DNA of 58,120 bases, taken from NCBI GenBank assembly GCA_913041415.1, contig CAJWHS010000006.1, forward strand, positions 1 to 58,120, given 5' to 3'. The notes beneath the pieces are model-generated. The model was given only the letters and a program-made list of their open reading frames with translations, was not told where the DNA came from and searched no databases. Numbering within the stretch: position 1 is the first letter of the stretch; the number at the start of each line of letters is the position of its first letter. Positions 10,191 to 44,831 of the stretch are shown here, piece after piece. Source of the stretch: an uncultured Acidimicrobiaceae bacterium. GTDB taxonomy: Bacteria > Actinomycetota > Acidimicrobiia > Acidimicrobiales > Aldehydirespiratoraceae. Made by a program: the position numbers and the translations under genes.

Positions 10191-11255
10191 TCACGGCGAT
10201 GGGGCAGGTCGCCTCACTTGGCTCGGCCAGCTGACGACGAGAAACGAGCCCATCCCGGCAGGATCGAGCAGGGCACCCGCCTCGGTGAGCCGACTCCGTG
10301 CCCGAAGCGCAGCGAGGTCACCGACGTGGGCCGAAGCCTCCCAAGCACGGCGGCCTTCCTCGACGAGCGCATCGATACCGTACCGGCGCAGGAACGCTGC
10401 CTGCGTCTCGATGACCGGCGATCCGATCGCCGCTAGTTGCTCGGTCGGCACGTCGATCGTGATGTCGCACCGACCGGGCTCAGCGAGCCAATCGACAACT
10501 CGGTCATGACCTCGATAGGCACGCAGCCACTCACCTTCGCGTTCGAGCAAGGCACTCGTCGGCGCGGCGTAATCGAGCACGACAAGGAGGGCCCCGGGGA
10601 AGCGGTGCCGCCGCTCACTCACCCAGTCGGTCGCCGGCCCGATGACGGGCAGCACGCTCCCTGCGGGGGCGTCGTCAACGCCGGCCGGTGTCGCCGTCGG
10701 CGAGCCACCAACCAGCGCGAAGCCGGTGTCGCCGGTGCCGACCCGCAGCTCGAACCAACCCGACTCGCCACGCTGAACAATGTCGAAGGCGAGATTGTCA
10801 AGAAGTTCGTTGGCGAACACGACATCAACCTGATCGAGCGAACGGTCGTCGGCCACCGACCGCAAATGATCACCCTCAGGATGCTGGAGCCGTTGGCTAT
10901 CGGACCGCTCGACCATCACCCACTTGAGCGCGCCCGCCGCGAGGCACGCGCCGGCGGCAGCGGTGACGGTGCGGGCAAGGGTGCCCGGACCAGCGCCGTG
11001 CTCAGCGACGACAAAGCGATTCGGCTCCCCAGCCTCCCGCCACCATGCATCGACAGCGTTGCTGACAACCGCACCGAAGAGCGGCCCCACTTCAGGGGCG
11101 GTGATGAAATCACCGCGACGGCCCGCCTGACCAACGGCTGCGTAGAAGCCCTCCGCCTCGTCGTACAGGGCCGCATCGACAAAATCGGACACGGCGATGG
11201 GCCCATCGGCCGCGATGCGCGCTCGGAGTCGATCGGCCAGCGATGTGGCCGCCAT
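10191..11255 (-). CDS. MidA/NDUFAF7 family SAM-dependent methyltransferase
   Basis: GFY..GRRGDFITAPEVGPLFG, EHGAGPGTLA, ANELLDNL, DY, DIT..V, TQAAFL..GI, MGSF; 4 bp downstream of nuoN. Confidence 0.88.
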   Translation of the reverse strand: MAATSLADRLRARIAADGPIAVSDFVDAALYDEAEGFYAAVGQAGRRGDFITAPEVGPLFGAVVSNAVDAWWREAGEPNRFVVAEHGAGPGTLARTVTAAAGACLAAGALKWVMVERSDSQRLQHPEGDHLRSVADDRSLDQVDVVFANELLDNLAFDIVQRGESGWFELRVGTGDTGFALVGGSPTATPAGVDDAPAGSVLPVIGPATDWVSERRHRFPGALLVVLDYAAPTSALLEREGEWLRAYRGHDRVVDWLAEPGRCDITIDVPTEQLAAIGSPVIETQAAFLRRYGIDALVEEGRRAWEASAHVGDLAALRARSRLTEAGALLDPAGMGSFLVVSWPSQVRRPAPSP

Positions 11256-11259
11256 GAGA

Positions 11260-12765
11260 TCAGCCGCCGAGGCCGCCGGCCAACAGCGTGACGTCGAACT
11301 CGCTCACCAGCGGCGGGTAGACGCCGAAGGCGATGGTGAGGGCGGCCGTGATGGCCAATGCCGACACGAGCGACGCCGGGACACGGATCGGTGTCGTGTC
11401 GCCGTTGGGGGCATCCTCCGCCCACATGCCGAGGCCAATGCGGGCGTAGTAGTAGAGCGCGATCACCGAGTTAACGGCGACGAAGACACCGAGCACCACA
11501 CCGGATGCACTCTCGGCCTCGATCACGGCCTCCATGACTCGGAACTTTGCCCACCAACCGCCGAGCGGCGGAATGCCGGCGAGCGAGAACAGGAAGACGC
11601 TCATCGCAATGGTCAGGCCCGGGGCGTAACCGAACAGACCCTTGAACGAGTCGATCTCGGCGGAGCGGGTCTTGCGAGCAACCGCCAGCACGATGGCGAA
11701 GGCGCCGAGGTTCATAGCGGCGTACACCAGGAGATACGTGACCGTGGCGGTGAGGGCGGCGTCACCGACATCGCTGGCGACCGCAAGGGGCGCCAGCATG
11801 TAACCGGCTTGGGCGACACCGGAGTAGGCGAGCATGCGGACCAGGTTGGTCTGACGGAGGGCGACAAGGTTGCCGACGGTCATCGAGGCCGCGGCGAGAA
11901 TCCAGATCAACGGTTCGTACACGTCGTCCCGGCCGAAGAAGCCGACGAAGAGCAGATTGAGCAACGCTACGAAGCCGGCCGCCTTCGACGCGACCGAGAG
12001 GAAGGCCGTAACCGGCGTAGGGGCACCCTCGTAGGTGTCTGGTGCCCAGGTGTGGAACGGGAACGCCGAGACCTTGAAGGCGAAACCGATGATCACGAAG
12101 ATCACGCCCACGACGACAATGGCAGACGGCGAACCATCGACGCTGACGGCTTCGTTGATGTCGGCCAGCAGGGTCGAGCCGGCGCCGCCGTAGAGCAGCG
12201 ACATGCCGTAAAGCATGATCGCAGAAGCGAACACGCCCATCAGGTAGTACTTCAGGCCCGCCTCGTTGCTCTTGAGATCACGCTTGCGCCAGGTCGCGAG
12301 CATGTAGGCGGGGATCGAAAGCAGCTCGAGCGCAACGAAGACCGTGATGAGATCACGGGCCGACGCCATCAGGACCATGCCGAGGATCGAACTCAACAGC
12401 AGGCCGTAGTACTCGCTCTCCCAGTAGTCGCCTTCGGCGACATAATTGGTCGACAAGAGGACGACCACATAGCCGGCGACCAAGAACATCGCCTTCATCA
12501 CGAGGGCGTAGTTGTCGACGACAAAGGCTCCGCCGAACATCACGCGATCCTCACCGTCGAGGGCGAGGGTGACGATCGGGATCATGGTGACCAGCAAGGC
12601 GATCGAGGCGACCGACGAGGTCAGACGACGGCCCCGCTCGAGCCAGACGATGTCCATCACAGTGACAAGCGCGCCGAACGCGAGCAGCGTGAGCTCCGGC
12701 GCGACGGCATGCCAGTCGATGGCGGGTCGAACGAAATCGACCTCTTGGGCGAGCAGGGCGAGCAT
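11260..12765 (-). CDS. nuoN: NADH-quinone oxidoreductase subunit N (11-subunit cluster)
   Basis: FVALELLS, EAGLKYY, FKVSAFPFHTWAPDTYEGAPTP, SLAGIPPLGG. Confidence 0.95.
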   Translation of the reverse strand: MLALLAQEVDFVRPAIDWHAVAPELTLLAFGALVTVMDIVWLERGRRLTSSVASIALLVTMIPIVTLALDGEDRVMFGGAFVVDNYALVMKAMFLVAGYVVVLLSTNYVAEGDYWESEYYGLLLSSILGMVLMASARDLITVFVALELLSIPAYMLATWRKRDLKSNEAGLKYYLMGVFASAIMLYGMSLLYGGAGSTLLADINEAVSVDGSPSAIVVVGVIFVIIGFAFKVSAFPFHTWAPDTYEGAPTPVTAFLSVASKAAGFVALLNLLFVGFFGRDDVYEPLIWILAAASMTVGNLVALRQTNLVRMLAYSGVAQAGYMLAPLAVASDVGDAALTATVTYLLVYAAMNLGAFAIVLAVARKTRSAEIDSFKGLFGYAPGLTIAMSVFLFSLAGIPPLGGWWAKFRVMEAVIEAESASGVVLGVFVAVNSVIALYYYARIGLGMWAEDAPNGDTTPIRVPASLVSALAITAALTIAFGVYPPLVSEFDVTLLAGGLGG

Positions 12766-12770
12766 CAGGT

Positions 12771-14360: not shown

Positions 14361-14390
14361 TGCAGTGTGTTCCCGTTACTGAGGTGAGAG

Positions 14391-16730: not shown

Positions 16731-16737
16731 GACCTGC

Positions 16738-17037
16738 TCAGCCCTTCAGCAGGTCGGCCTGGGTTAGGTCGATACTGCGGCGGTTGCGGTACATGAGGAG
16801 CACAATGGCGAGACCGATGCCGACTTCGGCAGCGGCCACAGCGATCGTGAACAGGGCGAACACCGAACCACCGACGTCGGCGCGGAACGCACCAAACGCC
16901 ACGAGGTTGATGTTGACGGCGTTGAGAATCAACTCGACCGACATGAGCACGAGCATGCCGTTCTTTCGGGCGAGCACGCCATACACGCCGAGACAGAACA
17001 AGACGGCGCTGAGGAGCAGGAACTGGTTCAGCAGCAT
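16738..17037 (-). CDS. nuoK: NADH-quinone oxidoreductase subunit K (11-subunit cluster)
   Basis: [21 protein letters not shown], 3 TM. Confidence 0.95.
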
Positions 17038-17045: not shown

Positions 17046-17576
17046 TCAGTCTTTCCGGGCTACGACGATGGCCCCGATGAGGGCGGCGAGCAGAAGCACC
17101 GACACCGCTTCGAAGGGGACGATGTACTGGCTGAAGATGGCGTCGGACACCTCGACGACGCCCTGCGGTCCGTCAATATCGACCCGGGTGTCCTCGAAGG
17201 AGTCGACCAAGGCCACCGCCATCACGGCGAACAACAACACGCCGACGATCGCAGCCATCGCCCGCTTCTCGCCGGCAACGGTCTCGTCGTCGCCCATCGA
17301 CGCACGCGTGAGCATGACGCCGAACAGAAACAACACGATCACAGCACCGATGTAGACGAGCACTTGCGTGACCGCAACGAATTCAGCACCGAGGAAGAGG
17401 AACTGCACCGCAACGCCGGCCAGCACGACGACCAGCCAGAGCGCAGCGTGCACGACGTTGGCGGTCGTGACCACCCGGAACGCCGCGTAGATCATCGTCC
17501 CCGCGATCACCGCGAAGAAGATGTTCTGTGCCACATAGAGATCGGTCTCCGAGGAGACCTGGGCCAACAACTGCAT
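17046..17576 (-). CDS. nuoJ: NADH-quinone oxidoreductase subunit J (11-subunit cluster)
   Basis: [25 protein letters not shown]; ATG overlaps the nuoI stop (TGATG). Confidence 0.93.
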
Positions 17577-18118
17577 CACGTCGAGGGAACCTTCTTGACT
17601 TTGGCTTCCGAACCCGCCTCGTAGGGCTCGAACTCCGGCACCGTCTCCATCCACTCCGCTAGGCGCGACTTGTCGTGAAGGAGATCAGCGATTCGAGGCT
17701 CGGAAAACTCATACTCCGGGCTCCAGAACAGCGCCTCGAACGGGCAGACCTCGACACAGATGCCGCAGTACATGCACAGAGCAAAATCGATGTCGAAGCG
17801 ATCGAGGGCGTTGACCTGGCGGGGCTTACCGCCAGCACGGCGCGGCGGCGCCTTTTCCTTATGGCCCTCGATGTAGATGCACCAGTCCGGGCACTCACGA
17901 GCGCAGAGCATGCACGCCGTGCAGTTCTCCTCGTGCAGGGCGATCACACCGCGGGCACGGGCGGGCGGCGCTTCCTTCTCGTGCGGGTACTGCACGGTGT
18001 CGGCGCCCTTGACCGGGTTGGGGATCGGCTTCTTGGGGTCCGGGAAGATCGTGCGGAGCATGGTGCCACCGGTGACACCGAGGCCCTTGACGATTCCGGT
18101 CGGTAGGTAACGTCCCAT
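17576..18118 (-). CDS. nuoI: NADH-quinone oxidoreductase subunit I (11-subunit cluster)
   Basis: [17 protein letters not shown] and [12 protein letters not shown] 2x[4Fe-4S] motifs. Confidence 0.95.
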
Positions 18119-18127: not shown

Positions 18128-19171
18128 CTAGAAGACGATCTTGAGAACGGCGGTGACCACAATGTTGGCCAGCGACAGCGGGATGAGCACCTTCCAGGCC
18201 AGCTGCTGGAGCTGATCCTCTCGGAAGCGGGGTAGCGAGAACCGGGCCCAGAAGATGATGAAGGTGAGGACGACCACCTTGGTGACCAAGACGAGCGGAC
18301 CCAGAAGATTCCAGACATTGTCGTCGAACCCGAGGCCCGGGATCGGCGCCCACCAACCACCGAGGAACAACACCGACGCAATGGCGCTGAAGACGCCGGC
18401 GGTGGCGAACTCACCAATGAAGAAAAGCAGGAAGCGCATGCCCGAGTACTCGGTCATGTAGCCGGTGACCAACTCGGACTCTGCGATCGGCATGTCGAAC
18501 GGGGTCTGGGTGAGTTCGGCCTGCATCGCGATCATGAAGATCACAAAGGCGACAAACTGGGTGAGGATATACGGGTTACCGATGCCGCCCCAGCCGAAGA
18601 TCTCGCCATCGGCTTGGGCCTGCACGATGCCCTGCATGTTCATCGTCTCGGCCTGGATGACCACACCCATGACGGCGAGGATCAGCGGGAGTTCGTAGGC
18701 GATGAGCTGGCCCGTGGCGCGCAGGCCACCGAGCAGCGAGTACTTCGAGGCCGAGCCCCAGCCGGCCATGAGGATGCCGATGACCGACACCGACGACACC
18801 GCCATGGCGAGGTAGATGCCGAGCTCGGAGTTGATGAACCAGGCGTCGGGACCGCCGGGCACGACGACGACCAACAGGAACGTCGACATGAGCACGACGA
18901 ACGGGGCGGCGGCGAAGACGAACCGGTCAGCCTTGCGCGGGAAGATGTCTTCCTTCTGGAGGAACTTGCCGACCTCGGCCAGCAGCTGCAGCGAGCCGAA
19001 CGGGCCAGCCTCCATCGGGCCGAGCCGGCTCTGCATGAACGACACCAGCTTGAACAGGTGCACATACACCAGGGTGCCCGCGACCAGCAGCACCGCAGCG
19101 AGGCCGACGCCAACACGGATACCGGTCTGTTGCCAGTACGCGAGCTCCCCCAGGATCGCGACGTCGGTCAT
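18128..19171 (-). CDS. nuoH: NADH-quinone oxidoreductase subunit H (11-subunit cluster)
   Basis: MQSRLGP, KYSLLGGLR..YE, PFDMPIAESELVTGYMTEYSG, PRFREDQL. Confidence 0.95.
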   Translation of the reverse strand: MTDVAILGELAYWQQTGIRVGVGLAAVLLVAGTLVYVHLFKLVSFMQSRLGPMEAGPFGSLQLLAEVGKFLQKEDIFPRKADRFVFAAAPFVVLMSTFLLVVVVPGGPDAWFINSELGIYLAMAVSSVSVIGILMAGWGSASKYSLLGGLRATGQLIAYELPLILAVMGVVIQAETMNMQGIVQAQADGEIFGWGGIGNPYILTQFVAFVIFMIAMQAELTQTPFDMPIAESELVTGYMTEYSGMRFLLFFIGEFATAGVFSAIASVLFLGGWWAPIPGLGFDDNVWNLLGPLVLVTKVVVLTFIIFWARFSLPRFREDQLQQLAWKVLIPLSLANIVVTAVLKIVF

Positions 19172-21047: not shown

Positions 21048-21525
21048 CCTTCCAACGCTCGGCCATATCCTCGTTCTGGATGCGCTCCTGCAGCAAAACG
21101 ATGCCCTCGAGCAGTGCTTCGGGACGGGGCGGGCAGCCAGGGACGTAGACGTCGACCGGGATGATCTGATCGACGCCCTTCGTCACGGAGTAAGAGTCCC
21201 AGTACGGGCCGCCGCAATTGGCGCACGAACCCATTGAGATCACGTACTTGGGTTCGGGCATCTGTTCGTATAGACGCTTGACCGACGGCACCATCTTGTC
21301 GGTGACGGTGCCGGAGATGACCACGAGGTCGGCCTGGCGAGGCGAGGCGGGCAGCGGGATGACACCGAGGCGCATCACGTCGTAGCGGGGCGACGCAAAC
21401 GCCGCGCCCATCTCGATCGCGCAGCAGGCAAGGCCCCACTGGTACACCCACATCGAGTACTTGCGGCTCATGTTGAGCAGCGACGTGATCGGCTTGGGGA
21501 TCTTCCCCGATTCGACTAGGCCCAC
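21025..21525 (-). CDS. nuoB: NADH-quinone oxidoreductase subunit B (11-subunit cluster)
   Basis: [29 protein letters not shown]. Confidence 0.96.
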
Positions 21526-21881
21526 TTGAGTACTCCCTTGCGCCAGGCGTACAGAAGGCCTAGCAAGAGGATGAAGATGAAGATCGCCATCTCGATCAGG
21601 CCGAAGGTTCCGTAAGCCTCAAGGCGGGTTGCCCACGGGAAGATGAAGACGGCCTCAACGTCGAACATGACGAAAAGCAGCGCAAACACGTAGTACCGGA
21701 TGTTGGCCTGGGACCACATGTCGCCGGTCGGCTCGACACCGGACTCGTAGGCCTCGGTCTTGGCCAGCGTGGGCTTGTTAGGGCGCAAGATCTTGCCCAG
21801 CCCAAGGAACACACCGACGAGCGCGACCCCGATGAGGCCAAAGATGCCAACCGTCAGGTAGCTACGAAGAAAATCCGACAC
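21516..21881 (-). CDS. nuoA: NADH-quinone oxidoreductase subunit A (11-subunit cluster)
   Basis: [27 protein letters not shown]. Confidence 0.95.
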
Positions 21882-22058: not shown

Positions 22059-22511
22059 TCAATCATCGAACGGGACGACCCTCGATGCCAGCCAACGGCC
22101 GGTGCCGGCCAGCAACAGGGCCGGGAGCGAGCGACCGAAGATTGACTCGAGGCGTCCGAGCACACCCGTGCCCGAGACCCGCCAGAGGTCGAGCAGGATC
22201 GCAGCACCTGCCTGCAAGGTGACGGCCCACGCGATCGCGACCGTCGCCGTGCGCAGCGACGGCACCAGATCGACTTGCGGTGTCGTGGCGACGAGCACGG
22301 CCGCCCCGATCACCATGAGTCCGGTGGTGGGCGAGGCGTTGCGGGTGAGTTCGGCTAGATCGTCGCTGAACACCCCCCAGCGTTCGTCGATGAAACCCGA
22401 CAGGGGGCCGAGCATCCGAAGCACGGCGCAGACGAGCAGGACGACGATGAGGGCCTCGCGCGCCTCGTCCCAGCTGACCGGGGGCGCCGAGGACTCGGTG
22501 TCGCCGCTCAT
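22059..22511 (-). CDS. hypothetical membrane protein between the two nuo clusters
   Basis: 150 aa with about 4 hydrophobic segments, starts 10 bp after the nuoN stop. Confidence 0.65.
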   Translation of the reverse strand: MSGDTESSAPPVSWDEAREALIVVLLVCAVLRMLGPLSGFIDERWGVFSDDLAELTRNASPTTGLMVIGAAVLVATTPQVDLVPSLRTATVAIAWAVTLQAGAAILLDLWRVSGTGVLGRLESIFGRSLPALLLAGTGRWLASRVVPFDD

Positions 22512-22521
22512 CGGGGCCCGG

Positions 22522-24210
22522 TCAGCCTGCGGCGATCAGAACAGGGATGGCGTCTCGGGTGATGTCGTCGAGTTCGCCCGGAACGAGGCCGAAGCCGACC
22601 GTGATCACGAGGGCCACGATGATCGCGAGACCAGCGGCGCGCGGCACACGGATCGTCGGAGCATCGTCCTCGGCCTGACCGAGGTACATCGACAAGATGA
22701 TGCGCAAGTATAGGAACGCCGATACGACCGCCGTGACCATGGCAGCGATCGCAAGCCAGTACGAGCGGGCCTCGACTGCAGCGCCAATCACAGCGAACTT
22801 GGCGACGAAGCCCGAAGTCAGCGGCACCCCAGCCTGAGCGAGCAGGAAGACGGTCAGGGCGAGCGCCAGGGCTGGCCGACGAGTGCTGAGGCCGTCGAGG
22901 TGATCGAGGCTCGTGCCACGATCGCCCTCGCCCGAAACGATGCTCAACACGCCGAAGCTGCCGATCACGAGAAAGGTGTAGGCGACGGCATAGAACAGCA
23001 CCGACGAGACGCCTTCGTTCGAGGCGGCCTGGACGCCGACAAGGATGAAGCCTGCGTGGCTGATCGAGGAGTAGGCGAGCATGCGCTTCGCATCACGCTG
23101 CACGATCGCCATGAACGAGCCGACCACGAGGGTGAGGATCGCGAGGGCGTAGACCGCAGGCTGCCAGTCGTCGGCGTGGTCTGCAAACGTCGTGACGAAG
23201 ACCCGGACCAACGCCGCAAAGCCGGCCGCCTTGACCGCCGAGGCCATGAAGGCGACCACCGGGGTGGGCGCACCCTGGTAGACGTCGGGGGTCCAGGCGT
23301 GGAACGGGGCCGCCGCGACCTTGAAACCCAGCCCGACGAGAAGCATCGCCATGCCCGCCATCAGCAGACCGTCCTCGACAAGTCGGTTCTGCTCGAGGAA
23401 ATCAGCGATCACGATCAGGTTCGTGGAGCCGACGGCGCCGTAGGTCAAGGCGATGCCGTACAGCAGGAACGCCGAGGAGAAGGCGCCGAGAACGAAGTAC
23501 TTGAGACCGGCCTCTTGGCTCTCGGAGCGACGCATGTGCATCGCCGCCATCACGTACACCGCGATGCTCAGCGTCTCGAGGGCGAGGAACAACACGATGA
23601 GGTCGTTCGCGCTCGCCATGACGGCACCACCAGCGCCCGAGAACAGCATCAGGACGTACATGTCGGCACCGGCCATGCCTTCACGTTCGAGGTAGTCGTC
23701 GAGGAGCAGGGCGACGAGCACGATGGCGCTGGCAATGACACCGGTGATCACCAGCGAGAAGCCATCGGCACCGAGCTGATCGCCGACAAGGCCGAAGGCG
23801 CCGTCGATCTCGTATCGGTCGGTCCACACCCCCCACGTGGCGGCGAGGCTGGTGAGCCCGATCATGACCGTCAGCGCGGCGTCGACGCTGAGCCGCAAGT
23901 ACTGGGCAAACCAGCCGCCGAGGCCGACCATGATCAGGAGACCGAGGAAGAAGACGGGGTCGCCGAGGCCGTCACGGAGGCCGGCAAGCGGCACGTCGGT
24001 GCCCGCGAAGCCGCCGACGACCCACATGGCGATCACGGTGACACCACCGATGACGGGCACGGCCTGATCGGCAGCCGCCTTCGGCAGTTGCTTCATCAGC
24101 GACCGGAAGAGCACCAGCAGCAGGGCACCGACGCCGAGAGTCAGGATCGGCAGCAGGCCGTCCCAAGTGATCTCGGGGCGGGCGACCGTGGAATCGAGCT
24201 GCGCGATCAT
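22522..24210 (-). CDS. nuoN: NADH-quinone oxidoreductase subunit N (14-subunit cluster)
   Basis: FLALETLS, EAGLKYFVLG, FKVAAAPFHAWTPDVYQGAPTP, GFVAK. Confidence 0.95.
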   Translation of the reverse strand: MIAQLDSTVARPEITWDGLLPILTLGVGALLLVLFRSLMKQLPKAAADQAVPVIGGVTVIAMWVVGGFAGTDVPLAGLRDGLGDPVFFLGLLIMVGLGGWFAQYLRLSVDAALTVMIGLTSLAATWGVWTDRYEIDGAFGLVGDQLGADGFSLVITGVIASAIVLVALLLDDYLEREGMAGADMYVLMLFSGAGGAVMASANDLIVLFLALETLSIAVYVMAAMHMRRSESQEAGLKYFVLGAFSSAFLLYGIALTYGAVGSTNLIVIADFLEQNRLVEDGLLMAGMAMLLVGLGFKVAAAPFHAWTPDVYQGAPTPVVAFMASAVKAAGFAALVRVFVTTFADHADDWQPAVYALAILTLVVGSFMAIVQRDAKRMLAYSSISHAGFILVGVQAASNEGVSSVLFYAVAYTFLVIGSFGVLSIVSGEGDRGTSLDHLDGLSTRRPALALALTVFLLAQAGVPLTSGFVAKFAVIGAAVEARSYWLAIAAMVTAVVSAFLYLRIILSMYLGQAEDDAPTIRVPRAAGLAIIVALVITVGFGLVPGELDDITRDAIPVLIAAG

Positions 24211-28164: not shown

Positions 28165-28485
28165 TCATCCCCTCAAGAGCGACACGTCGTCGGCGGTGGC
28201 ATCAGAGCGACGACGGTTGATCGCGACCACCAGGGCGAGGCCGACGACAACCTCCACCGCAGCGACCACGAGAACGAAGAACACGGAGATCTGGCCACCC
28301 ACATCGTTGAGGTCGGCACCGAAGGCGACGAACGAGATGTTCACGCCGTTGAGCATCAGCTCGACGCACATGAACATCACGAGTGGGTTGCGGCGGATCA
28401 ACAGGCCCGTCGCGCCGGTGGCGAACAGCAAGGCCGACAGCACGAGGTAGTAGGGCGAGGTGAGCGCAAGCTCGGCGAGAATCAC
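28165..28485 (-). CDS. nuoK: NADH-quinone oxidoreductase subunit K (14-subunit cluster)
   Basis: CVELMLN, AAVEVVVGLA. Confidence 0.95.
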   Translation of the reverse strand: MILAELALTSPYYLVLSALLFATGATGLLIRRNPLVMFMCVELMLNGVNISFVAFGADLNDVGGQISVFFVLVVAAVEVVVGLALVVAINRRRSDATADDVSLLRG

Positions 28486-29117
28486 GATGCGTCCTCCTCG
28501 ACCGTGTCGACATGGTGTTCGTCGTTGGCCCCCTCGGGCGCCAGCGACGGGAGGTCCACCGATGCCGGCGCAAGATCATCGAGCTGGTCAGCCGACGACT
28601 GTGACCGGGTGAGCACGACGGCACCGATCACGCCGATGGTGAGCAGGGCGGCGGTGAGCTGGAACGCGACTGCGTACTCGGTGAACAGGACCCGGCCGAT
28701 GCGCTCGATATCCGTAATGCCGGAATCGAGCTGTCGTTCGGGGTCGCCAGAGCCAACGCCGGTAGCGCCATCAGTGGCGACGAGCACGAACGTGATCGCC
28801 GTGGCGAGCAGTGAGGCGCCAAGCACAACCGCAAGCGGCTTTTGGCCGGCGATCGGTTCGACACCGAGATCCTCGGCCTTGTCGACACCGAGCAACATGA
28901 TCACGAAGAGGAACACGATCACGATTGCGCCGGCGTACACGACAATCTGCACCGCCGCGAGGAAGTGTGCTTCCTGCACGACAAAGATCACCGCGACACC
29001 GAGCAGGGTCTGGATCAAGAAGAGTGCCGAGTGCACGGCGTTGCGCGCGACGACGACGCCGATCGCCCCGGCGAGGATGATCGCCGCTCCGAAGAAGAAC
29101 GTGATGAATTCAGCCAT
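28482..29117 (-). CDS. nuoJ: NADH-quinone oxidoreductase subunit J (14-subunit cluster)
   Basis: NAVHSALF, QIVVYAGAI. Confidence 0.94.
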   Translation of the reverse strand: MAEFITFFFGAAIILAGAIGVVVARNAVHSALFLIQTLLGVAVIFVVQEAHFLAAVQIVVYAGAIVIVFLFVIMLLGVDKAEDLGVEPIAGQKPLAVVLGASLLATAITFVLVATDGATGVGSGDPERQLDSGITDIERIGRVLFTEYAVAFQLTAALLTIGVIGAVVLTRSQSSADQLDDLAPASVDLPSLAPEGANDEHHVDTVEEDAS

Positions 29118-37374: not shown

Positions 37375-37968
37375 TCAGCCCCCGATCGTCAGGCCAGCGG
37401 TCTGTCCGTCGCGCTGTTCGATGGTGATACCGGCGCCGCCGCCATTCGCCTCGCGGCGTTGGACAAGCTCGCCGGACTCGATCTTGGTGTGCAGGGTGAA
37501 GATCGAGTGCAGGAGGGTTTCCGGCCCGGGCGGGCAGCCTGGTGCGTAGACATCGACCGGCACGATCTGGTCGACGCCTTGCACGATCGCGTAGTTGTTG
37601 AACATGCCGCCGCTCGAGGCGCACACGCCCATGGAGATCACCCACTTGGGTTCCATCATCTGGTCGTAGACCTGACGGAGAACCGGAGCCATCTTCTGGC
37701 TCACCCGGCCGGCAACGATCATTAGGTCAGCCTGCCGAGGCGATGCCCGGAAGGTCTCCATGCCGTAGCGGGCGAGGTCGTAGTGGGCCGTGCCCGACGC
37801 CATCATCTCGATTGCGCAGCACGCGAGACCGAACGTGGCCGGCCAGAGGCTGCGGGACCGCGCCCAGCTGACCAGGTTCTCGACATTGCCGGTGAGGAAG
37901 TTGTGATCCATCCCCTCCAGGCCGTTGTCGGCGATCGACTGGCTTTCACCGAGCCCTGGAATCCTCAC
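37375..37968 (-). CDS. nuoB: NADH-quinone oxidoreductase subunit B (14-subunit cluster)
   Basis: [29 protein letters not shown]. Confidence 0.96.
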
Positions 37969-38435
37969 GCTGCCGTCTCCTCCGCAATCGGCCGGTTCTC
38001 GAGACCGACACGGCGAATGGTGGATTCAGCGGTTCGTTCCGGCGAGACGGCGCCGGACGGGCGAGCCACCTGCTTGAGCGGGCCCCATTCGAGTGCGCCG
38101 TTGCTGATCAGGTACACGAACGACTCGAAGACGGCGAACGTAAATACCATGATCATCGCCAGGCCGAACACGCCGAGACTCCCGTAGGCCAAAGCGTACG
38201 GGTAGAAGAAGATGATCTCGATGTCGAAGACGATGAAGATCATGGCGACCAGGAAGAACTTCACCGGGAAGCGTTCCGGGGTCTCCTTGGTCGGGACGAT
38301 GCCGCACTCATACGCAGCTCGCTTGGCGTACGTCGGGTTGCGCGGGGCCAGGAGGCCCGATGCGATGAAGCTGCCGGCGGCGAAGAGCACCGCTAGCCCA
38401 AACAGCATCAGCAGGGGCAGGTACTGGCCGAGCAT
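37965..38435 (-). CDS. nuoA: NADH-quinone oxidoreductase subunit A (14-subunit cluster)
   Basis: [23 protein letters not shown]. Confidence 0.95.
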
Positions 38436-38438
38436 GGG

Positions 38439-39578
38439 TTACGCCGCCTTTTCGAACTCAGCTCGCCGAGCCATGACGACCTTGTCGCGTTCGTGGAGCA
38501 TGTAACACAGCGACAAGAAGATGAGTAGCGAACCGATGGTGAAGAACGCCGGCACCTGACGCAGGTTGCCCAGGTTGCGGATCATCACGACCGAGACGAT
38601 CGGCTCGTCTTGGTCGACCACCGGGATAAGCGGAGCGTTACCCGGCAGGTTGGTCAACGACTCCTCCGTGACCTGCTGCACCTGGATGATGCCGTAGCGG
38701 GTCGGGTGGCTGATCTGCGCAGTCTGGCGGATCCTGGTCCAGACCCGGTCGAGGACGTTCGGGTCATCGGGCAGGCCTTCCTTGCCGCCGATGGTGTAGG
38801 CGTCAAGGAGCTTGAACTGGCTCTGGTCGGCGAAGGAGAAATCGTCGGACTCGAGCAGCATGGCGATGGCCGAGGCCTGCGCCTCGCCCGCTTCGGCGGT
38901 GGACAGAAGTGTCCAGCCTCCGAGGTTCGCATTGTCAGGATCAATCAGACCGGGGGTGACTGCAGCGAGTTCGGACCAGGTGGTCGCCTCGTTGCGACTC
39001 TGCTCTGCGGCGACGAGTGCGTCGATCTTCGCCAGCGACAGGCCCTCGACCTGGTCGGGCGTGAGGCGCTCAGCGACGACGATGCCGAATTCCGCGTCGG
39101 CAATCTGGATCTCGACGAGACGATCGGCAGCGTCATTGCTGAGGCCGGCCGAATCCATAGTTCGCCAGTCGGCGCCGAACTCGGCCTCGGCAGCCTCGGC
39201 AGCCGCAACGACCGCCTCATGCGCCGACGGCAGAGATTCGGTGCGAAGCAGGTTGGCCTCGTCGAGCGCGGCGAAGGTCAGGTGGCCTTCCGTCTCGGTG
39301 CCCTCGACGATCTCGACTTCGTCCCATACCGGGCCGTCACCAGCCCAACCGATGCCATAGAGCCACCAGATCGAACCCATAATGGTCAACCAGGCAAAGA
39401 GGCCCGCCAGGGACAGCAGGGTGCCGAGGCGGACGCCGTTGTTGCTGGACACGATGATCCAGACGGAGCCCATCCAGACACAGAAGCCCGCGAAGACCGC
39501 AAGGAAGCCGCGGACATGGGGATCCCACTCAAGCCCGTCGATCCAGTCGAGGACGCCGATCAGTTCGACCATTTCCAT
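38439..39578 (-). CDS. hypothetical membrane protein linking the cytochrome bc and nuo genes
   Basis: 2 N-terminal TMs, large acidic domain, 1 C-terminal TM; ATG overlaps the cytochrome c stop; ends 3 bp before nuoA. Confidence 0.8.
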   Translation of the reverse strand: MEMVELIGVLDWIDGLEWDPHVRGFLAVFAGFCVWMGSVWIIVSSNNGVRLGTLLSLAGLFAWLTIMGSIWWLYGIGWAGDGPVWDEVEIVEGTETEGHLTFAALDEANLLRTESLPSAHEAVVAAAEAAEAEFGADWRTMDSAGLSNDAADRLVEIQIADAEFGIVVAERLTPDQVEGLSLAKIDALVAAEQSRNEATTWSELAAVTPGLIDPDNANLGGWTLLSTAEAGEAQASAIAMLLESDDFSFADQSQFKLLDAYTIGGKEGLPDDPNVLDRVWTRIRQTAQISHPTRYGIIQVQQVTEESLTNLPGNAPLIPVVDQDEPIVSVVMIRNLGNLRQVPAFFTIGSLLIFLSLCYMLHERDKVVMARRAEFEKAA

Positions 39579-41071
39579 CAAAGAGTCCTCTCAAACGCCA
39601 CGATGGCATCGATCTGCTCGTCGGTGAGCAGGGCCGGATACTCGAAGACGATGCCGGAGCCGGGGCCCATACCTGGGCCCACCGGATTGGCTTCCGTCAG
39701 TGCGCCGAAGCCAGGCATCTGGCCGTTGCCGCCCGAACCACCACGACCGTAAGTCTGACCGATGGCTTGGCCTCGCGTGATGAAGGCCGACTGGCCGATG
39801 GCGGTCTCGAACTGCGAAAGGGTTGAGCCGCCGGTCAGGTTGGGGCCGAAGAAGCCACCGGCAGTGACGTACCCGTCGGCGAGCTCGGGAATCGGACCGT
39901 CGCGGCCGTTCTCCTCGAGCACATAGTCGGATGCGCCGTCGAAGCTCCAGCCATAGGTGTGGCAGCGGGCGCAGCTGTACGTGCCGGCGGCCGCCGTGTT
40001 GCTGAAGAGGATCTCGCCCCACTGGAGGTACGCCTCCTGACCCTCGAACGCATCGAGGGTCGAAAGAATTTCGAGCGCAGCGGCTCGGAGGTCGTCCTCA
40101 TTGCCCTCATCGGCGAGCGACGGGTCGGCCTCGATCACAAGGGCATCGGCCGTGGCCTTCGCCGCCGAGACCTGATCGAACCAGGTGGACACCGCCGCAT
40201 CAAGCGGTTCGACCGCAGCCTCGTTCGCTGCGGTGAGACGGGCGTTGGCCTCGTCGAGTGCCAGGCACTCGCTGGCGTCGTCGGAGCACTCGAAGTCGAA
40301 GTCGGCCCGACCGAGCAACCGAACGGCCATGGCGGCGTCGGCCTGGGCGGCTTCCGCGGCCCGGACCTCGACCGCCCACGCCTCATCGCTGGTCTCGAGG
40401 ATCAGCGCCTTGGCACCGGCCTCGACACCACTGTCGACCTGTGAGCGGATCTCATCTTCGGAGATCTGAACGCTGCGGAGATAGAAGATGATCTCTTCGA
40501 GCTGCTGATCGGTGAGCGGACCGCCGCCACCGGAACCCCAGGCCGGCATGACACCGTTTCGGCCGTAGTTGAGCACGTGGAGAATCTCGTCCTCGGTGTG
40601 GCGCGACATCAGCGTGTTGAGGGCTGGCGCCTTCCAGTTGACCTGGGCCACAAACTCGCCGGACGACGAGGTGATGGCGGTGTTGACGACACCACCGGCG
40701 CCCTCAGGGCCGTGACAGTTCACGCACTGCGCACCCTCGAGATAGATCTCCTCGCCACGGTTGGTGGAGATTCGCCACGTGTCGAGATCCCGGCCTTCGT
40801 GACGCCCCGGCTCACCGAGCCAGTAAAGCGGCAAGGTGATGGCCACGATCGTCAGCAGCACCAGGCTCGAGCCAAGCGCAAGATCGAGCTTCTTGCCCTC
40901 GAGATCCTCGTCGGAGAGATACGGCTTGCGGTTCGAGGCGAGCTCAATCTCCGAGCCGACTTCGTTGCGAGCCGAGCGGATGTTGAAGTAGATGTAGACG
41001 ATCCCACCGAGGACGACGATCGCCAAGATGACGAGTCCGATGGTTCGTTGTGTGGAGGCGGCGAGCAACAT
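39578..41071 (-). CDS. membrane-anchored diheme cytochrome c (QcrC-like subunit of the Rieske/cytochrome b complex)
   Basis: CVNCH..MPAWG and CARCH..MPGFG; two N-terminal TMs. Confidence 0.88.
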   Translation of the reverse strand: MLLAASTQRTIGLVILAIVVLGGIVYIYFNIRSARNEVGSEIELASNRKPYLSDEDLEGKKLDLALGSSLVLLTIVAITLPLYWLGEPGRHEGRDLDTWRISTNRGEEIYLEGAQCVNCHGPEGAGGVVNTAITSSSGEFVAQVNWKAPALNTLMSRHTEDEILHVLNYGRNGVMPAWGSGGGGPLTDQQLEEIIFYLRSVQISEDEIRSQVDSGVEAGAKALILETSDEAWAVEVRAAEAAQADAAMAVRLLGRADFDFECSDDASECLALDEANARLTAANEAAVEPLDAAVSTWFDQVSAAKATADALVIEADPSLADEGNEDDLRAAALEILSTLDAFEGQEAYLQWGEILFSNTAAAGTYSCARCHTYGWSFDGASDYVLEENGRDGPIPELADGYVTAGGFFGPNLTGGSTLSQFETAIGQSAFITRGQAIGQTYGRGGSGGNGQMPGFGALTEANPVGPGMGPGSGIVFEYPALLTDEQIDAIVAFERTL

Positions 41072-41128
41072 GCGAGTGTCGGGTGGTCGAGAACTCTCTG
41101 AGATGGGAACGGACGGAGGCTACCGGGC

Positions 41129-42010: not shown

Positions 42011-42028
42011 TGGTGTTTCCTCCTTGCC

Positions 42029-42808
42029 TTACAGCTCGAAGAACAAGCCGGCTTCCCACGGGAAGACGAAGTTGAATCCGGGTCCTCGGAAGAACGAGCC
42101 GATCATGGTCAGCACAGCCCAGAACATAAGGTGGACAGTCATCAACGAAACCGCGAACTTACGATCCTCGGGCTTCGCCGACGGGTTTCGGTCGATGTAG
42201 GGAATAAACATCAAGAAGAACAGGCCGATACCCGGAATGGTCACGCCGGCGACCATCGGGTGGAACACCGTGAGGAGTTCCTGCAGGCCGAGGAAGTACC
42301 ACGGGGCCTTCGACGGGTTCGGCGTCTCGTTGAAGTTGGCGAGCTCCAGCAGCGGAGCGTTGACGAAGATCGAGAAGATCAAGGTGAACGCAAGCGCAAA
42401 CAGAGCGGCGCCGAACTCGACCACGAGCAGGTGAGGCCAGGTGTGGACCTTGTCCTGCGGGACGGCCTTGACGTCTTGGATCGAGCCCGACTTCACAACG
42501 GTGAGCAGGCGCTGGGTGTGACCACCGGGCCCGGTCGGCACCGGGGCGCCCGACGCAGCAGCGGGGGCGGCTGCGGCGGGAGCCGTGGCGACGGCGGTTC
42601 CGGTGGCGGTACCGCCGGCGGCCTTCGCCTTGGCGGCCTTGGAGCGCTCGAGCAGGTGCGCCGGGATCTTCGACGCAGCCTCTTGCTGTTCGGCGCTGAG
42701 TTCCTGGGCGGGCGCCTCGGCCGGAGCGTCGGCGGCAGCCTTGGCCGCAGCGGCCTTGGCTCGGGCCTCTTCGGCCCGCTTGCGGAGGTGTTCGGGGACT
42801 TCGGTCAT
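42029..42808 (-). CDS. cytochrome b subunit IV (PetD-like C-terminal part of a split cytochrome b)
   Basis: TWPHLL, ANFNETPNPSKAPWYFLGLQ, PYID; long Ala-rich N-terminal extension. Confidence 0.88.
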   Translation of the reverse strand: MTEVPEHLRKRAEEARAKAAAAKAAADAPAEAPAQELSAEQQEAASKIPAHLLERSKAAKAKAAGGTATGTAVATAPAAAAPAAASGAPVPTGPGGHTQRLLTVVKSGSIQDVKAVPQDKVHTWPHLLVVEFGAALFALAFTLIFSIFVNAPLLELANFNETPNPSKAPWYFLGLQELLTVFHPMVAGVTIPGIGLFFLMFIPYIDRNPSAKPEDRKFAVSLMTVHLMFWAVLTMIGSFFRGPGFNFVFPWEAGLFFEL

Positions 42809-42829
42809 GTCCTTCTTCTCCTTTTTGCC

Positions 42830-43624
42830 TTAGAGCGGACCCGAGATGCCGCCGTCCTTGCGCACTCGCCAAAAGTGGATCGCCATGAAGATGACGAGCA
42901 CGAACGGCAGGAGCAAGACGTGCAACACGTACCATCGGAGCAGCGTGTCGGTGCCGATCTCCACGCCGCCGAGCAGCACGAAGCGGACTTGTTCTCCGAA
43001 CACCGGGGTGTACCCCATCATGTTGGTACCCACCGTCACCGCCCAGAGGGCCAGCTGGTCCCAGGGCAGGAGGTAGCCGGTGAACGAGAGGAGCAGGGTG
43101 AACTGCAAGAGGTTGACGCCGATCACCCAGTTGAACTCACGGGGCGCCTTGTACGCACCGTGGTAGAAGACGCGGGCCATGTGGAGGAACACCGAAAGCA
43201 CCATCAAGTGGGCTGCCCATCGATGCATGTTCCTGACCAGCAGGCCGAAGGTCACGCTGTTTTGCAGCGTGTAGATGTCGTCCCAGGCCGCCGCAGCGGT
43301 CGGCCGGTAGAAGAACATTAAAAAGATGCCGGTGACCGTCAGCAAGATGAACAGGAAGAAGGACAGACCGCCGAGGCACAGCGTGTAGCTGACCTTGACT
43401 GCGTGACGCTTCACCTTTACCGGGTGCAGGTGGTACAACACTGAGTTCATGATCACGTAGGACCGGTTTCGAGGGCTGTCGGTGTAACCCTTCCGGAAGA
43501 TCGAGCCAGGTCGGAAGATCGAGTTCCAGGCCTGAGAGGACTGGGTCGCGTCGACTAGCTGGGTTGCTTGGTCCTGCAGCCGCTGCGGCAGGGGCTTCTT
43601 CGCGTCTTCGTCAGTGTTCGCCAT
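42830..43624 (-). CDS. cytochrome b6-like subunit (PetB-like N-terminal part of a split cytochrome b)
   Basis: CLGG, HRWAAH..LHMARV, GYLLPWDQ, four heme His, ends GISGPL. Confidence 0.93.
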   Translation of the reverse strand: MANTDEDAKKPLPQRLQDQATQLVDATQSSQAWNSIFRPGSIFRKGYTDSPRNRSYVIMNSVLYHLHPVKVKRHAVKVSYTLCLGGLSFFLFILLTVTGIFLMFFYRPTAAAAWDDIYTLQNSVTFGLLVRNMHRWAAHLMVLSVFLHMARVFYHGAYKAPREFNWVIGVNLLQFTLLLSFTGYLLPWDQLALWAVTVGTNMMGYTPVFGEQVRFVLLGGVEIGTDTLLRWYVLHVLLLPFVLVIFMAIHFWRVRKDGGISGPL

Positions 43625-43656
43625 AGATCTTTGTTTCGTGTCAGGGCACTCCGGCG

Positions 43657-44073
43657 TCAGCCGAGGCGCATGCCGTATCCGTAACCGTGGGTATTCGTTC
43701 GCTGGTGGGCATCACCGTCGGCCGGCGGGTCGCCAATCTTGCCGAGGATGATCACACCCGTGGGGCACCGGTCGACGCAGAGAGCGCACCGGGTGCACAC
43801 GTCGTCGTCGATGGTGAAAATCACATTGTCGTTGGGGTCGCTGCCCGGGAGTTCCGTACCGATCGCTTCGTCGATCGCGTCGGGACGCACCATGTGGATG
43901 CACTTCCACGGGCAGATGTCAACACAGCCCTCGCACATGATGCACTCGGACTGGTCAATGTGGATGAACTGCTTCGGCTTGACCTGGGCGGTGAGCCAGG
44001 CTGCGTCGACCTGCTGGAGGATGTAGTCGTCGCGGAACTCGGGAAGCGGCGGATTCGCGTCGGTGGTCGCCAT
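43657..44073 (-). CDS. 2x[4Fe-4S] dicluster ferredoxin
   Basis: CIMCEGCVDICP and CTRCALCVDRCP. Confidence 0.9.
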   Translation of the reverse strand: MATTDANPPLPEFRDDYILQQVDAAWLTAQVKPKQFIHIDQSECIMCEGCVDICPWKCIHMVRPDAIDEAIGTELPGSDPNDNVIFTIDDDVCTRCALCVDRCPTGVIILGKIGDPPADGDAHQRTNTHGYGYGMRLG

Positions 44074-44077
44074 GAAG

Positions 44078-44527
44078 TCAGGCACCTTCCTTAACGAGCG
44101 GACGGCCGAAGGTCGAGCGTTCGGGAGTCTTCTCTGCGTTCTGCTTCTCGCCGCGCTTTTGCCAGGCGGCCCACATCCAGATGTTGCCGGCGAGCGCAAC
44201 GACATAGATGCCAACAGCGATGAGGTCGCGTAACACAACATAGTTGACACGAATTGGCGACCAGCCACCGTCCTGCTGCGACTTGAGCAGGTCAAACGGG
44301 CCGAAAAGGATCTTGTCGGAACGCCAGTTGAGCTCATTGTCGGCCCAGGACAGGAACTGGTGCGGCACGACGCCATAGACCCAGAACATCAAGAAGAAGA
44401 CGATCATTGAGCCGAGCATCGCCTCGCCCCAGGTCACGACCTGATCGGCGGGACGGCGCTTCTGGTAGGTGAGGATTCCGCCAACGATCAAGGCGGTGAC
44501 GATGATCGACGACACGAAAGCGACCAC
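44078..44527 (-). CDS. hypothetical membrane protein (3 TM), first gene of the respiratory block
   Basis: GTG start with AGGAG RBS; three hydrophobic segments; ends 4 bp before the ferredoxin. Confidence 0.8.
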   Translation of the reverse strand: MVAFVSSIIVTALIVGGILTYQKRRPADQVVTWGEAMLGSMIVFFLMFWVYGVVPHQFLSWADNELNWRSDKILFGPFDLLKSQQDGGWSPIRVNYVVLRDLIAVGIYVVALAGNIWMWAAWQKRGEKQNAEKTPERSTFGRPLVKEGA

Positions 44528-44564
44528 GCTGCGACTCCTGGAGAACGGACGCGTTTCACGAACT

Positions 44565-44582
44565 TCGTGAAACCATGCACAA
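44565..44582 (-). promoter_or_regulatory. putative Rex operator abutting a TAGACT -10 element (44587-44582)
   Basis: Minus strand TTGTGCA-TGGT-TTCACGA vs Rex consensus TTGTGAA-N4-TTCACAA; arms nearly identical to the site upstream of rex. Confidence 0.75.
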
Positions 44583-44831
44583 GTCTAAACCGGAGGCGCT
44601 GCGACCCCCGGATTGGTGCCTGGTTTATCACGATGCCTTTCGATTCCCCCCATCCGGCGCTGGGGAAAATCGGGTGTTGCGCGATTGTCCGAAATTCGGG
44701 GGGAGGATTCTGCTTCGGCTTGTTCGGACGTGCGACACTGCCCCTATCCTCAGGGGGCGTGGTCGGCGTAATCCTGCCTCTGCCGCTCCACCCGCCAGTC
44801 CGCTGTCCGATCGATCCGCCGGAGACCAACG

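Follow-up and report, generated by a model that had tools for sequence, protein, structure and literature searches.

The window analysed here is the whole of contig CAJWHS010000006.1 (58,120 nucleotides), which belongs to a 2.68-Mb metagenome-assembled genome (MAG) of an uncultured Acidimicrobiaceae bacterium with a completeness of 96.85%. Its minus strand carries a run of respiratory genes spanning about 35 kb that encodes the sole complex III of the organism and two complex I gene sets. With a probability of about 0.6, this block is a compaction of three separately conserved respiratory units and not a single dedicated system linked by a ferredoxin. The first unit is a conserved module of seven genes coding for the membrane protein memS149, a ferredoxin-like protein with motifs for two [4Fe-4S] clusters (hereafter Fd), cytochrome b6, subunit IV, a Rieske protein, a dihaem cytochrome c and the membrane protein orf380. 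The finding at the level of this module is solid. The second unit is a nuoA-N set and the third a nuo set devoid of nuoE, nuoF and nuoG (referred to as EFG-less), followed by a methyltransferase gene.

A conserved seven-gene complex III module

The module was delineated by comparing the window with regions from 40 other Actinomycetota genomes, 20 from the same order and 20 further ones (four from the same class and 16 from other classes). The succession memS149, Fd, b6, subunit IV and Rieske is kept in 20/20 order relatives, memS149 being missing from G032, whose contig stops at this point. Each of the 20 genomes outside the order has Fd directly upstream of b6, subunit IV and Rieske, and cytochrome c comes next, by tblastn, in 19 of them. 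Iterative profile searches place a memS149 homologue directly before Fd in 40 of the 40 regions having upstream DNA and an orf380 homologue immediately behind cytochrome c in all 41 regions. As only the open reading frames (ORFs) of the 41 regions were searched, the E-values refer to a small set, and more weight lies with the invariable position. Because orf380 directly follows cytochrome c in every one of these regions, it is part of the complex III module and not a gene coupling complex III to complex I. Likewise, Fd, memS149 and orf380 stay with the b6 genes in 20/20 genomes outside the order, 18 of which have no nuo gene in the 17 kb downstream, so that Fd belongs with complex III and not with the EFG-less complex I.

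The same linkage is observed across the phylum. In a sample of 151 Actinomycetota genomes drawn evenly, six unpublished ones included, Fd is present in 68 genomes and b6 in 70. As many as 70 of the 73 Fd matches are upstream of b6 in the same orientation, at a distance of 0-700 bp; among the remaining three, one overlaps b6 by 4 nucleotides and two are located at possible contig breaks. When the six unpublished genomes are excluded, Fd is found in 62/145 genomes, b6 in 64/145 and the upstream linkage in 64 of 67 matches. The b6 matches lacking Fd comprise one gene left incomplete by the end of its contig and eight divergent paralogues (51-57% identity). These divergent paralogues (G043:C16, G080:C25, G091:C41, G095:C4/C5, G105:C78, G161:C350, G169:C80 and G172:C20) are mostly devoid of an Fd gene, with the exception of G095:C4, where a Fer4 match lies directly upstream. 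Within the order, strong Fd orthologues were identified in 37 of the 41 genomes. Among the four others, the b6 of G036 is interrupted by the end of its contig, and G024, G031 and G038 are also without a b6-type cytochrome b, which indicates that gain and loss of the two go together. Overall, Fd is carried by at least 596 species-level genomes. A lookup in the ESM Atlas returned only generic or unnamed actinobacterial clusters. The possibility that memS149 is a CCB1-type haem-ci assembly factor was considered and rejected, the protein having no Pfam match except a sub-threshold one to DUF996.

The module and the operator-like site preceding it are arranged as follows, in the order of transcription:

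44565-44582, no strand assigned: Rex-operator-like inverted repeat, differing from TTGTGAANNNNTTCACAA by 2 mismatches and located 37 bp upstream of where memS149 starts
44078-44527, minus strand: memS149, membrane protein of 149 residues with three hydrophobic segments; no Pfam or NCBIfam family above cut-off
43657-44073, minus strand: Fd, ferredoxin-like 2x[4Fe-4S] protein of 138 residues; Fer4 families
42830-43624, minus strand: cytochrome b6, four-helix N-terminal half of cytochrome b, 264 residues, with CxGG as LCLGG; PF00033, 152.7 bits
42029-42808, minus strand: subunit IV, C-terminal half of cytochrome b; carries the Qo motif APWY and has an N-terminal tail of low complexity; PF00032
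41129-42010, minus strand: Rieske [2Fe-2S] protein with the internal twin-arginine motif RRQFF and the boxes CPHLGC and CPCHGS; PF00355 and sequence reading
39578-41071, minus strand: dihaem cytochrome c, membrane-anchored, with CVNCH at residue 116 and CARCH at residue 367; PF00034, PF13442, motifs and transmembrane segments
38439-39581, minus strand: orf380, membrane protein with transmembrane segments at both the N- and the C-terminal end; no match to a Pfam or NCBIfam family

The order Fd, b6, subunit IV, Rieske, cytochrome c replaces the one given in a preliminary description of this DNA. The Fd gene starts with an ATG at 44073, 4 nucleotides past the memS149 stop codon. A longer ORF of 239 codons was discarded as the ferredoxin gene since it is over-extended and overlaps the genuine upstream gene memS149.

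The product of the module has the hallmarks of a split Rieske/cytochrome b complex of the b6 type: a four-helix b6, a separate subunit IV with its Qo motif and the Rieske boxes. Cytochrome b6 passes the NCBIfam equivalog cytb_ExtP (305 bits for a cut-off of 290). Its residues C83, G85 and G86 are invariant; the CxGG motif, here LCLGG, is kept in 34/34 aligned sequences, and so is KAPWYF of subunit IV. The cysteine of this invariant motif is a candidate attachment site for haem ci (also called cn). On the basis of the APWY and CxGG motifs and the cytb_ExtP pass, the complex is a probable member of the APWY clade of Kao and Hunte. In the NCBIfam scan, the actinobacterial models bc1_QcrB_actin (NF050120) and bc1_QcrA_actin reached 119.7 bits for a cut-off of 500 and 22.5 for a cut-off of 275, respectively. 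Scores so far below the cut-offs and the split cytochrome b indicate that the complex is not a canonical actinobacterial QcrCAB. It shares with the QcrCAB encoded next to ctaE the dihaem cytochrome c, a Rieske protein with an internal twin-arginine motif and extra transmembrane segments, and the phylum. The two differ by the split instead of fused cytochrome b, by the gene order and by the absence here of adjacent cta genes.

The cytochrome b of the module is the only one in the genome. No haem-copper oxidase gene is present within the window; two COX1 genes are located on another contig (C3), and cytochrome bd was not found in this 96.85%-complete genome. The complex therefore serves as the housekeeping complex III and must supply the haem-copper oxidases with reduced cytochrome c; it is not an accessory complex. 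The earlier remark that the block contains no terminal oxidase genes holds for the whole window, but means only that the oxidases sit on another contig. The module thus probably encodes a b6c-type menaquinol:cytochrome c reductase of seven genes, the only complex III of the organism; the quinone is presumably menaquinone, as expected for the class.

Several peculiarities of the individual subunits were noticed. Compared with cyanobacterial b6, this cytochrome b6 is extended by about 48 residues at its N-terminus, and its residues ~30-77 form a near-invariant basic, histidine-rich stretch (FRPGS..KGY.DSPRNRSY...YHLHPVKVKRH). In anammox complexes, a cytoplasmic inter-monomer haem on an N-terminal histidine has been predicted (PMC12954380). 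Upstream of the module, a divergently transcribed gene (44832-45680, plus strand) codes for a membrane-anchored monohaem cytochrome c. This protein and subunit IV have a common N-terminal motif, MTEVPEHL(R/L)K(R/K)A..ARA. The Ala/Lys-rich cytoplasmic tail of subunit IV holds a similar IPAHLLERSKAAKAKA segment again, and the motif is kept across the order. The haem motif of the monohaem cytochrome c is CAGCQ, while its relatives have CAGCH, CASCH or CSACH in 16/16 cases with a match, two of them being 93% identical. This His-to-Gln change is either real in this MAG or an assembly error.

The ferredoxin-like protein and its known analogues

Fd contains two CxxCxxCxxxCP motifs whose eight cluster cysteines are invariant in 34/34 sequences sharing 30-100% identity. 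Its nearest families are NuoI-type subunits and polyferredoxins, every one of them below cut-off. A sequence scan found no signal peptide and no hydrophobic or transmembrane segment, and the protein should therefore be cytoplasmic. Identity across the order is 63-100%, and the N- and C-terminal tails are both conserved there. Considering the strict positional and phyletic coupling of Fd to a haem-ci-type cytochrome b6, we infer that it is rather probably a redox partner of the b6c complex at the membrane's cytoplasmic face (n-side). As a component of that side, Fd would exchange electrons between its two [4Fe-4S] clusters and haems bH and ci at the quinone-reduction side of the complex. We favour an inward flow, in which a low-potential donor in the cytoplasm, for example reduced ferredoxin, would deliver electrons to menaquinone at Qi; an enzyme family that reduces ferredoxin (POR_N, 2-oxoacid:ferredoxin oxidoreductase-type) is encoded in the genome. 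Such a flow would amount to a hard-wired version of the path from ferredoxin to haem cn that has long been proposed for cytochrome b6f. Electrons could also flow in the reverse direction, with bifurcation driving the reduction of a low-potential acceptor, as proposed for anammox complexes. In this respect it is a live possibility that a haem-ci-type complex has a port of the ferredoxin type for the entry or exit of electrons. A broader and more doubtful generalization is that, in most Actinomycetota outside the class Actinomycetes, the sole complex III might be a three-port enzyme with a hard-wired cytoplasmic 2x[4Fe-4S] subunit, through which low-potential electrons would enter or leave at the haem-ci site, and that in Acidimicrobiales it might be co-transcribed with complex I under the control of Rex.

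Alternatively, Fd could be neither a subunit nor a port of the mature enzyme. It could act in assembly or maturation, for instance in cofactor insertion into the b6/haem-ci module, or be a free ferredoxin with another client. The lack of a transmembrane segment or signal peptide and the absence of a homologue from every solved complex are compatible with such a role, and memS149 and orf380 could likewise be assembly factors. This alternative is unlikely, though it is the main rival. The position and the sequence of Fd are very stable, down to both termini, and its strict co-occurrence and co-loss with the b6-type cytochrome b are more typical of a stoichiometric partner, even if a dedicated assembly factor would still be compatible with them.

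Three groups of complexes are relevant for comparison. In the photosynthetic cytochrome b6f, a ferredoxin-type donor on the n-side (ferredoxin/ferredoxin-NADP reductase (FNR) to haem cn, in cyclic flow) has been proposed to complete quinone reduction (PMC7908018, PMC5600118). The solved structures closest to the present b6 are those of cyanobacterial and chloroplast b6 (E ~4e-47), and the CxGG motif is common to both. However, the ferredoxin of the b6f system is a free [2Fe-2S] protein whose gene lies apart from those of the complex. The present window shows no sign of photosynthesis, and the quinone is presumably a different one, menaquinone.

The APWY clade of split Rieske/cytochrome b complexes includes those of Ilumatobacter coccineum, Geobacter (ExtOPQ; PMC5877670), Chloroflexi, Planctomycetes and Nitrospirales (PMC4122944). 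The split cytochrome b of I. coccineum, a member of the Acidimicrobidae, is reported among the actinobacterial ones falling in the APWY or the PEWY-cytochrome c clade (PMC4122944). As of that article, no APWY complex had been characterised. The present complex has in common with the clade the split b6 and subunit IV, the APWY motif, the CxGG haem-ci motif and the cytb_ExtP equivalog. It differs by its partners, since a 2x[4Fe-4S] gene, memS149 and orf380 go unmentioned in the available portions of the descriptions of the clade (PMC4122944, PMC5877670), the Geobacter cluster containing multihaem cytochromes and a porin instead (PMC5877670). It also differs by its status, being here the sole complex III of an aerobe and there an extra copy.

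The closest analogue of the Fd-carrying module would be the anammox Rieske/cytochrome b complexes of Kuenenia, encoded by Kuste4569-4574 and Kustd1480-1485 (PMC12954380). Anammox bacteria possess cytoplasmic FeS-flavoprotein partners of b6-type complexes (PMC5600118; PMC12954380). Both systems combine a four-helix b6-like cytochrome b and a subunit IV with an extra iron-sulfur protein on the cytoplasmic side, and an electron flow similar to the one suggested here has been proposed between the low-potential haem chain and the cytoplasmic FeS clusters (PMC12954380). Nevertheless, the anammox FeS subunit is a large FAD-containing NAD(P) oxidoreductase, against a two-cluster protein of just 138 residues devoid of flavin and nucleotide domains here. 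The p-side partners are hexa- or octahaem cytochromes in anammox bacteria and a dihaem cytochrome c here. An anammox-type cytoplasmic subunit with FAD and NAD(P) domains is not recognizable in the module, the 138-residue protein having Fer4-type domains only.

Several observations weigh against the assignment of Fd to complex III and against the common regulation of complexes I and III discussed below. The survey covers Actinomycetota only. The 138-residue Fd carries Fer4-type domains and no flavin or NAD(P) domain that would point to a cytoplasmic partner. Its putative place within complex III is deduced from gene position and co-occurrence. A search for natural fusions retrieved 70 longer proteins with E <=1e-15, about 20 of which are singleton entries combining Fer4 and cytochrome b domains. 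Five of these were inspected: four (P0121, P0135, P0151, P0159) contain linkers or tails that look like junk, as is typical of assemblies with frameshifts, and were rejected as evidence. On the regulatory side, a site resembling the Rex operator (ROP) is absent, at up to 3 mismatches, from five of the 20 order genomes and from 14 of the 20 others, and that of the window itself has 2 mismatches. The contigs of RNA libraries that bridge gene junctions may be DNA, and a contig across two genes does not amount to one transcript. Scans for sigma-70 promoters returned one and zero promoter-like sites, below shuffle expectation, this type of scan being ill-suited to the phylum. Finally, no description of a ferredoxin gene in actinobacterial Rieske/cytochrome b operons was found in the literature searched, although the surveys Dibrova 2013 and ten Brink 2013 may mention it.

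The fifth fusion entry inspected, P0152, looks clean but lies on one short contig and was not used as evidence. An apparent Fd-b6 fusion in G106 was likewise discarded, since a stop codon separates the two genes on translation. The ~20 singleton ferredoxin-cytochrome b entries of public collections are apparently frameshifted gene calls that would mislead surveys of domain architecture. No homologue of Fd bound to a cytochrome bc complex was found among solved structures. One run of complex prediction with cytochrome b6, residues 95-259 of subunit IV, memS149 and Fd as partner gave a median score of 0.43. The scores were 0.00 in two controls with a replaced partner and 0.38 when cytochrome b6 was replaced, and the prediction was counted neither for nor against Fd binding.

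The literature searched also contains no description of memS149 and orf380 as module genes, of an order-wide fusion of complex III and complex I genes, or of a methyltransferase linked to an EFG-less set, and priority is not assured. The term 4Fe-4S does not occur in the first 300,000 characters of PMC7908018. The split APWY-type cytochrome b of Acidimicrobidae (PMC4122944) and the Rex control of nuo and hem operons (PMC5355995) are already known. Whether ferredoxin can pass electrons to b6f-type complexes at haem cn has been a matter of debate for decades, and for a cytoplasmic FeS partner the anammox system, which is uncultivable in pure form, is the sole genetically encoded precedent. The Fd-b6 pair, present across hundreds of actinobacterial species including cultured ones and abundant marine, freshwater and activated-sludge groups, offers a simple test case, and the module is tractable by purification, electron paramagnetic resonance (EPR), cryo-electron microscopy and gene deletion. 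A three-port complex III, if true, would be a natural, non-photosynthetic and genetically defined version of the debated ferredoxin route into cytochrome b6f. In addition, memS149 and orf380 are uncharacterised membrane proteins that are candidate subunits of complex III.

The two complex I gene sets and their link to complex III

EFG-less second nuo sets occur in actinobacteria. In the window, set 1 comprises a canonical NADH-type nuoA-N with all 14 Pfam families in order, EFG included. Set 2 comprises A-D and H-N (11 subunits), with no E, F or G between nuoD2 and nuoH2, which overlap by 4 nucleotides. The two sets are old paralogues of 30-48% identity that do not stem from a recent duplication. 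An identification of set 2 as a cyanobacterial NDH-1 or an Fpo complex was rejected (NdhH 338 for a cut-off of 583, FpoD 315.8 for 600), whereas the generic NuoD model passes. No electron-donor module is encoded near set 2.

The minus-strand chain from 10191 to 44527 is unbroken and counts 34 co-directional genes according to Pfam scans and sequence reading, which bears out the number announced earlier; a TetR-family gene adds a 35th. The chain reads memS149, Fd, cytochrome b6, subunit IV, Rieske, cytochrome c, orf380, nuoA-N, orf150, nuoABCDHIJKLMN, Methyltransf_28 and TetR, so that the end of the chain as first described had to be amended to these last two genes. Judging from the coordinates, all the genes overlap or are separated by at most 57 nucleotides, with the sole exception of the 177 nucleotides between orf150 and nuoA2. 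The tight coupling of cytochrome c to an orphan membrane gene ending 3 bp before nuoA was confirmed: the stop of cytochrome c overlaps the start of orf380 by 4 nucleotides, and 3 nucleotides separate the end of orf380 from nuoA. Downstream of orf380, the chain contains the following genes:

37965-38435, minus strand: nuoA (set 1); PF00507
37375-37968, minus strand: nuoB (set 1); PF01058
36837-37373, minus strand: nuoC (set 1); PF00329
35539-36840, minus strand: nuoD (set 1); PF00346 and NF004739, 552.8 bits
34913-35542, minus strand: nuoE; PF01257
33489-34913, minus strand: nuoF; PF01512, PF10589
31027-33489, minus strand: nuoG; PF00384, PF22117, PF13510, PF10588
29783-31030, minus strand: nuoH (set 1); PF00146
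29110-29841, minus strand: nuoI (set 1), true start codon probably later; Fer4 families
28482-29117, minus strand: nuoJ (set 1); PF00499
28165-28485, minus strand: nuoK (set 1); PF00420
25853-28156, minus strand: nuoL (set 1), 767 residues; PF00361, PF00662, PF01010
24207-25880, minus strand: nuoM (set 1); PF00361
22522-24210, minus strand: nuoN (set 1); PF00361
22059-22511, minus strand: orf150, small membrane protein between the nuo sets; no family found
21516-21881, minus strand: nuoA (set 2, EFG-less); PF00507
21025-21525, minus strand: nuoB (set 2); PF01058
20337-21047, minus strand: nuoC (set 2); PF00329
19168-20340, minus strand: nuoD (set 2), with nuoH directly after and no E/F/G; PF00346 and NF004739, 382.9 bits for a cut-off of 360
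18128-19171, minus strand: nuoH (set 2); PF00146
17576-18118, minus strand: nuoI (set 2); Fer4 families
17046-17654, minus strand: nuoJ (set 2), true start codon probably later; PF00499
16738-17037, minus strand: nuoK (set 2); PF00420
14391-16730, minus strand: nuoL (set 2), 779 residues as called; PF00361, PF00662
12771-14360, minus strand: nuoM (set 2); PF00361, PF01059
11260-12765, minus strand: nuoN (set 2); PF00361
10191-11255, minus strand: Methyltransf_28 methyltransferase, 4 nucleotides after nuoN2; PF02636, 90 bits for a cut-off of 23.3
9484-10194, minus strand: TetR-family regulator, start overlapping the methyltransferase stop by 4 nucleotides; PF00440, PF02909

Among the regions compared, nuoA-N abuts the complex III module only within this order. 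In 20/20 order genomes nuoA starts 0-156 bp past the orf380 homologue. Outside the order, 18 of 20 genomes have no nuo gene in the 17 kb downstream of the module; in the two exceptions, nuoA1 starts ~7 kb downstream (G087) or nuoA/B lie upstream on the opposite strand (G116). Direct adjacency of sets 1 and 2 is restricted to this genus and its nearest relatives. Set 2 is located 1-15 kb further in eight genomes (G019, G023, G027, G030, G032, G033, G035 and G037), and a distance of 15-61 kb separates nuoD2 from nuoD1, with both on one strand, in G016, G017, G018, G116 and G087. Homologues of orf150 are present in only 7 of 41 regions. The third unit, namely the EFG-less set with its methyltransferase of the NDUFAF7 family, would thus be loosely linked, its adjacency being incidental to a compact (2.7 Mb) marine genus.

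The Rex operator consensus of Streptomyces (PMC5355995) was used to scan the window at up to 3 mismatches. Two sites were found for 0.59 expected. One (55974-55991, 1 mismatch) lies 18 bp upstream of the rex gene, located at 55308-55955 and coding for the Rex domains PF06971 and PF02629. The other (44565-44582, 2 mismatches) is the site preceding memS149. A ROP-like site within ~100 bp or less upstream of memS149 is present in 15 of 20 order genomes (window counted) and in 6 of 20 others. There is neither a sizeable intergenic region before nuoA1 nor a ROP-like site of its own. As the operator stands here before the module and in Streptomyces before nuoA1, the simplest reading is a single Rex-controlled unit made of complex III and nuoA-N. 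The 177-nucleotide gap before nuoA2 contains no ROP-like site at up to 3 mismatches in the window, and in three genomes where set 2 is separated (G027, G033, G037) nuoA2 has its own ROP-like site, with 2 mismatches, 41-57 bp upstream. In the Streptomyces Rex regulon, which comprises nuoA1-N1, rex-hemACD, cyd and atp, the operator precedes nuoA1 (PMC5355995). The window resembles it by the succession rex, hemA, hemC, hemD with a ROP-like site upstream and by the ROP-like site before the nuoA-N operon, but here the operator is ahead of a complex III module fused in front of nuoA. These operator-like sites and the rex gene make the module and nuoA-N putative members of a Rex regulon. In Acidimicrobiales the two units joined head-to-tail would share one promoter with a Rex operator, and complexes I and III would be induced together as the NADH/NAD+ ratio rises.

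The junctions were also searched in contigs of four marine metatranscriptome runs from four studies, originating from relatives of 93-95% identity. The cytochrome c/orf380 junction is bridged by contigs of all four studies (X1 record 7, X3 record 16, X8 record 22 and X9 record 32) and the orf380/nuoA junction by contigs of two (X1 record 6 and X9 record 31). The matching RNA libraries have small word shares (0.12-0.21) and their depth is unfit to rank genes. The bin 22068-22734, at the end of orf150 and nuoN1, has little or no cover in the four runs, from which nothing was concluded. Terminator-like sites amounted to 16 for 10.5 expected and 9 for 9.6 expected from shuffles, which was not regarded as an excess, and none of them is at a unit boundary. 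The bridging contigs lend some support to co-transcription of the complex III module and nuoA-N in Acidimicrobiales, which is probable, and complexes I and III in one probable operon throughout an order would bear on the control of respiratory stoichiometry.

The preliminary description had regarded the whole block as one ferredoxin-linked complex I-complex III system with possible cyclic or reverse flow, in which Fd would feed the EFG-less complex I and perhaps complex III, and orf380 and orf150 would be coupling subunits. Consistent with this, all units point the same way and adjoin one another in the window as in close relatives, the EFG-less set is devoid of an NADH module, a 2-oxoacid:ferredoxin oxidoreductase-type gene is present in the genome, and the complex has both the haem-ci motif and the APWY Qo motif, the latter linked to reverse operation by Kao and Hunte (PMC4122944). 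Such a system is nevertheless improbable. In 20/20 genomes outside the order Fd, memS149 and orf380 remain with b6 and the nuo set is usually not adjacent, and set 2 is 15-61 kb off in five genomes of the class and has its own ROP-like site in three genomes. Moreover, the supposed coupling subunits are not dedicated to a link between the complexes, orf380 tracking cytochrome c and orf150 being rare, and the sole cytochrome b must serve ordinary aerobic respiration. Conservation of the gene order, on which the proposal relied, was confirmed for the junction of complex III and nuoA-N in the order relatives; it broke down for the EFG-less set, which lies 1-61 kb away in other families. The idea of a supercluster forming one system is largely an effect of genome compaction.

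The opposite view, three housekeeping operons transcribed independently whose order is kept by inertia, the Rex-like site and RNA contigs being coincidental, is equally improbable: it can draw on an uninformative promoter scan, on RNA contigs that prove no single transcript and are possibly DNA, and on units that are unlinked outside the order, but it is at odds with the 4-nucleotide overlap and 3-nucleotide spacer at cytochrome c/orf380/nuoA, with a junction that is tight in 20/20 order genomes, and with a ROP-like site at a conserved position before the module when nuoA1 has neither such a site nor a sizeable gap.

Counting the window, nuoN2 is followed by a PF02636 methyltransferase in 10 regions, and G037 has fragments of one. 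This family presumably corresponds to NDUFAF7/MidA. NuoD1 contains HGVLR and NuoD2 HGTLR, and the arginine of HG(V/T)LR would be the equivalent of NDUFS2 Arg85, the target of NDUFAF7 methylation in mitochondria. The pairing of the methyltransferase with set 2 may be a bacterial forerunner of the NDUFAF7 assembly step; a methyltransferase presumably of the NDUFAF7 type is in any case tied genetically to a bacterial EFG-less complex I.

Neighbouring genes

The TetR gene, last of the 35-gene chain, also follows the methyltransferase in G005, G007, G008, G009 and G012. On the other side of the module, the minus-strand genes within 49761-55991 code for Rex, HemA, HemC, a HemD-GNAT fusion, a HAD hydrolase and a class-III aminotransferase (HemL-like), an arrangement that resembles the Streptomyces rex-hemACD operon.

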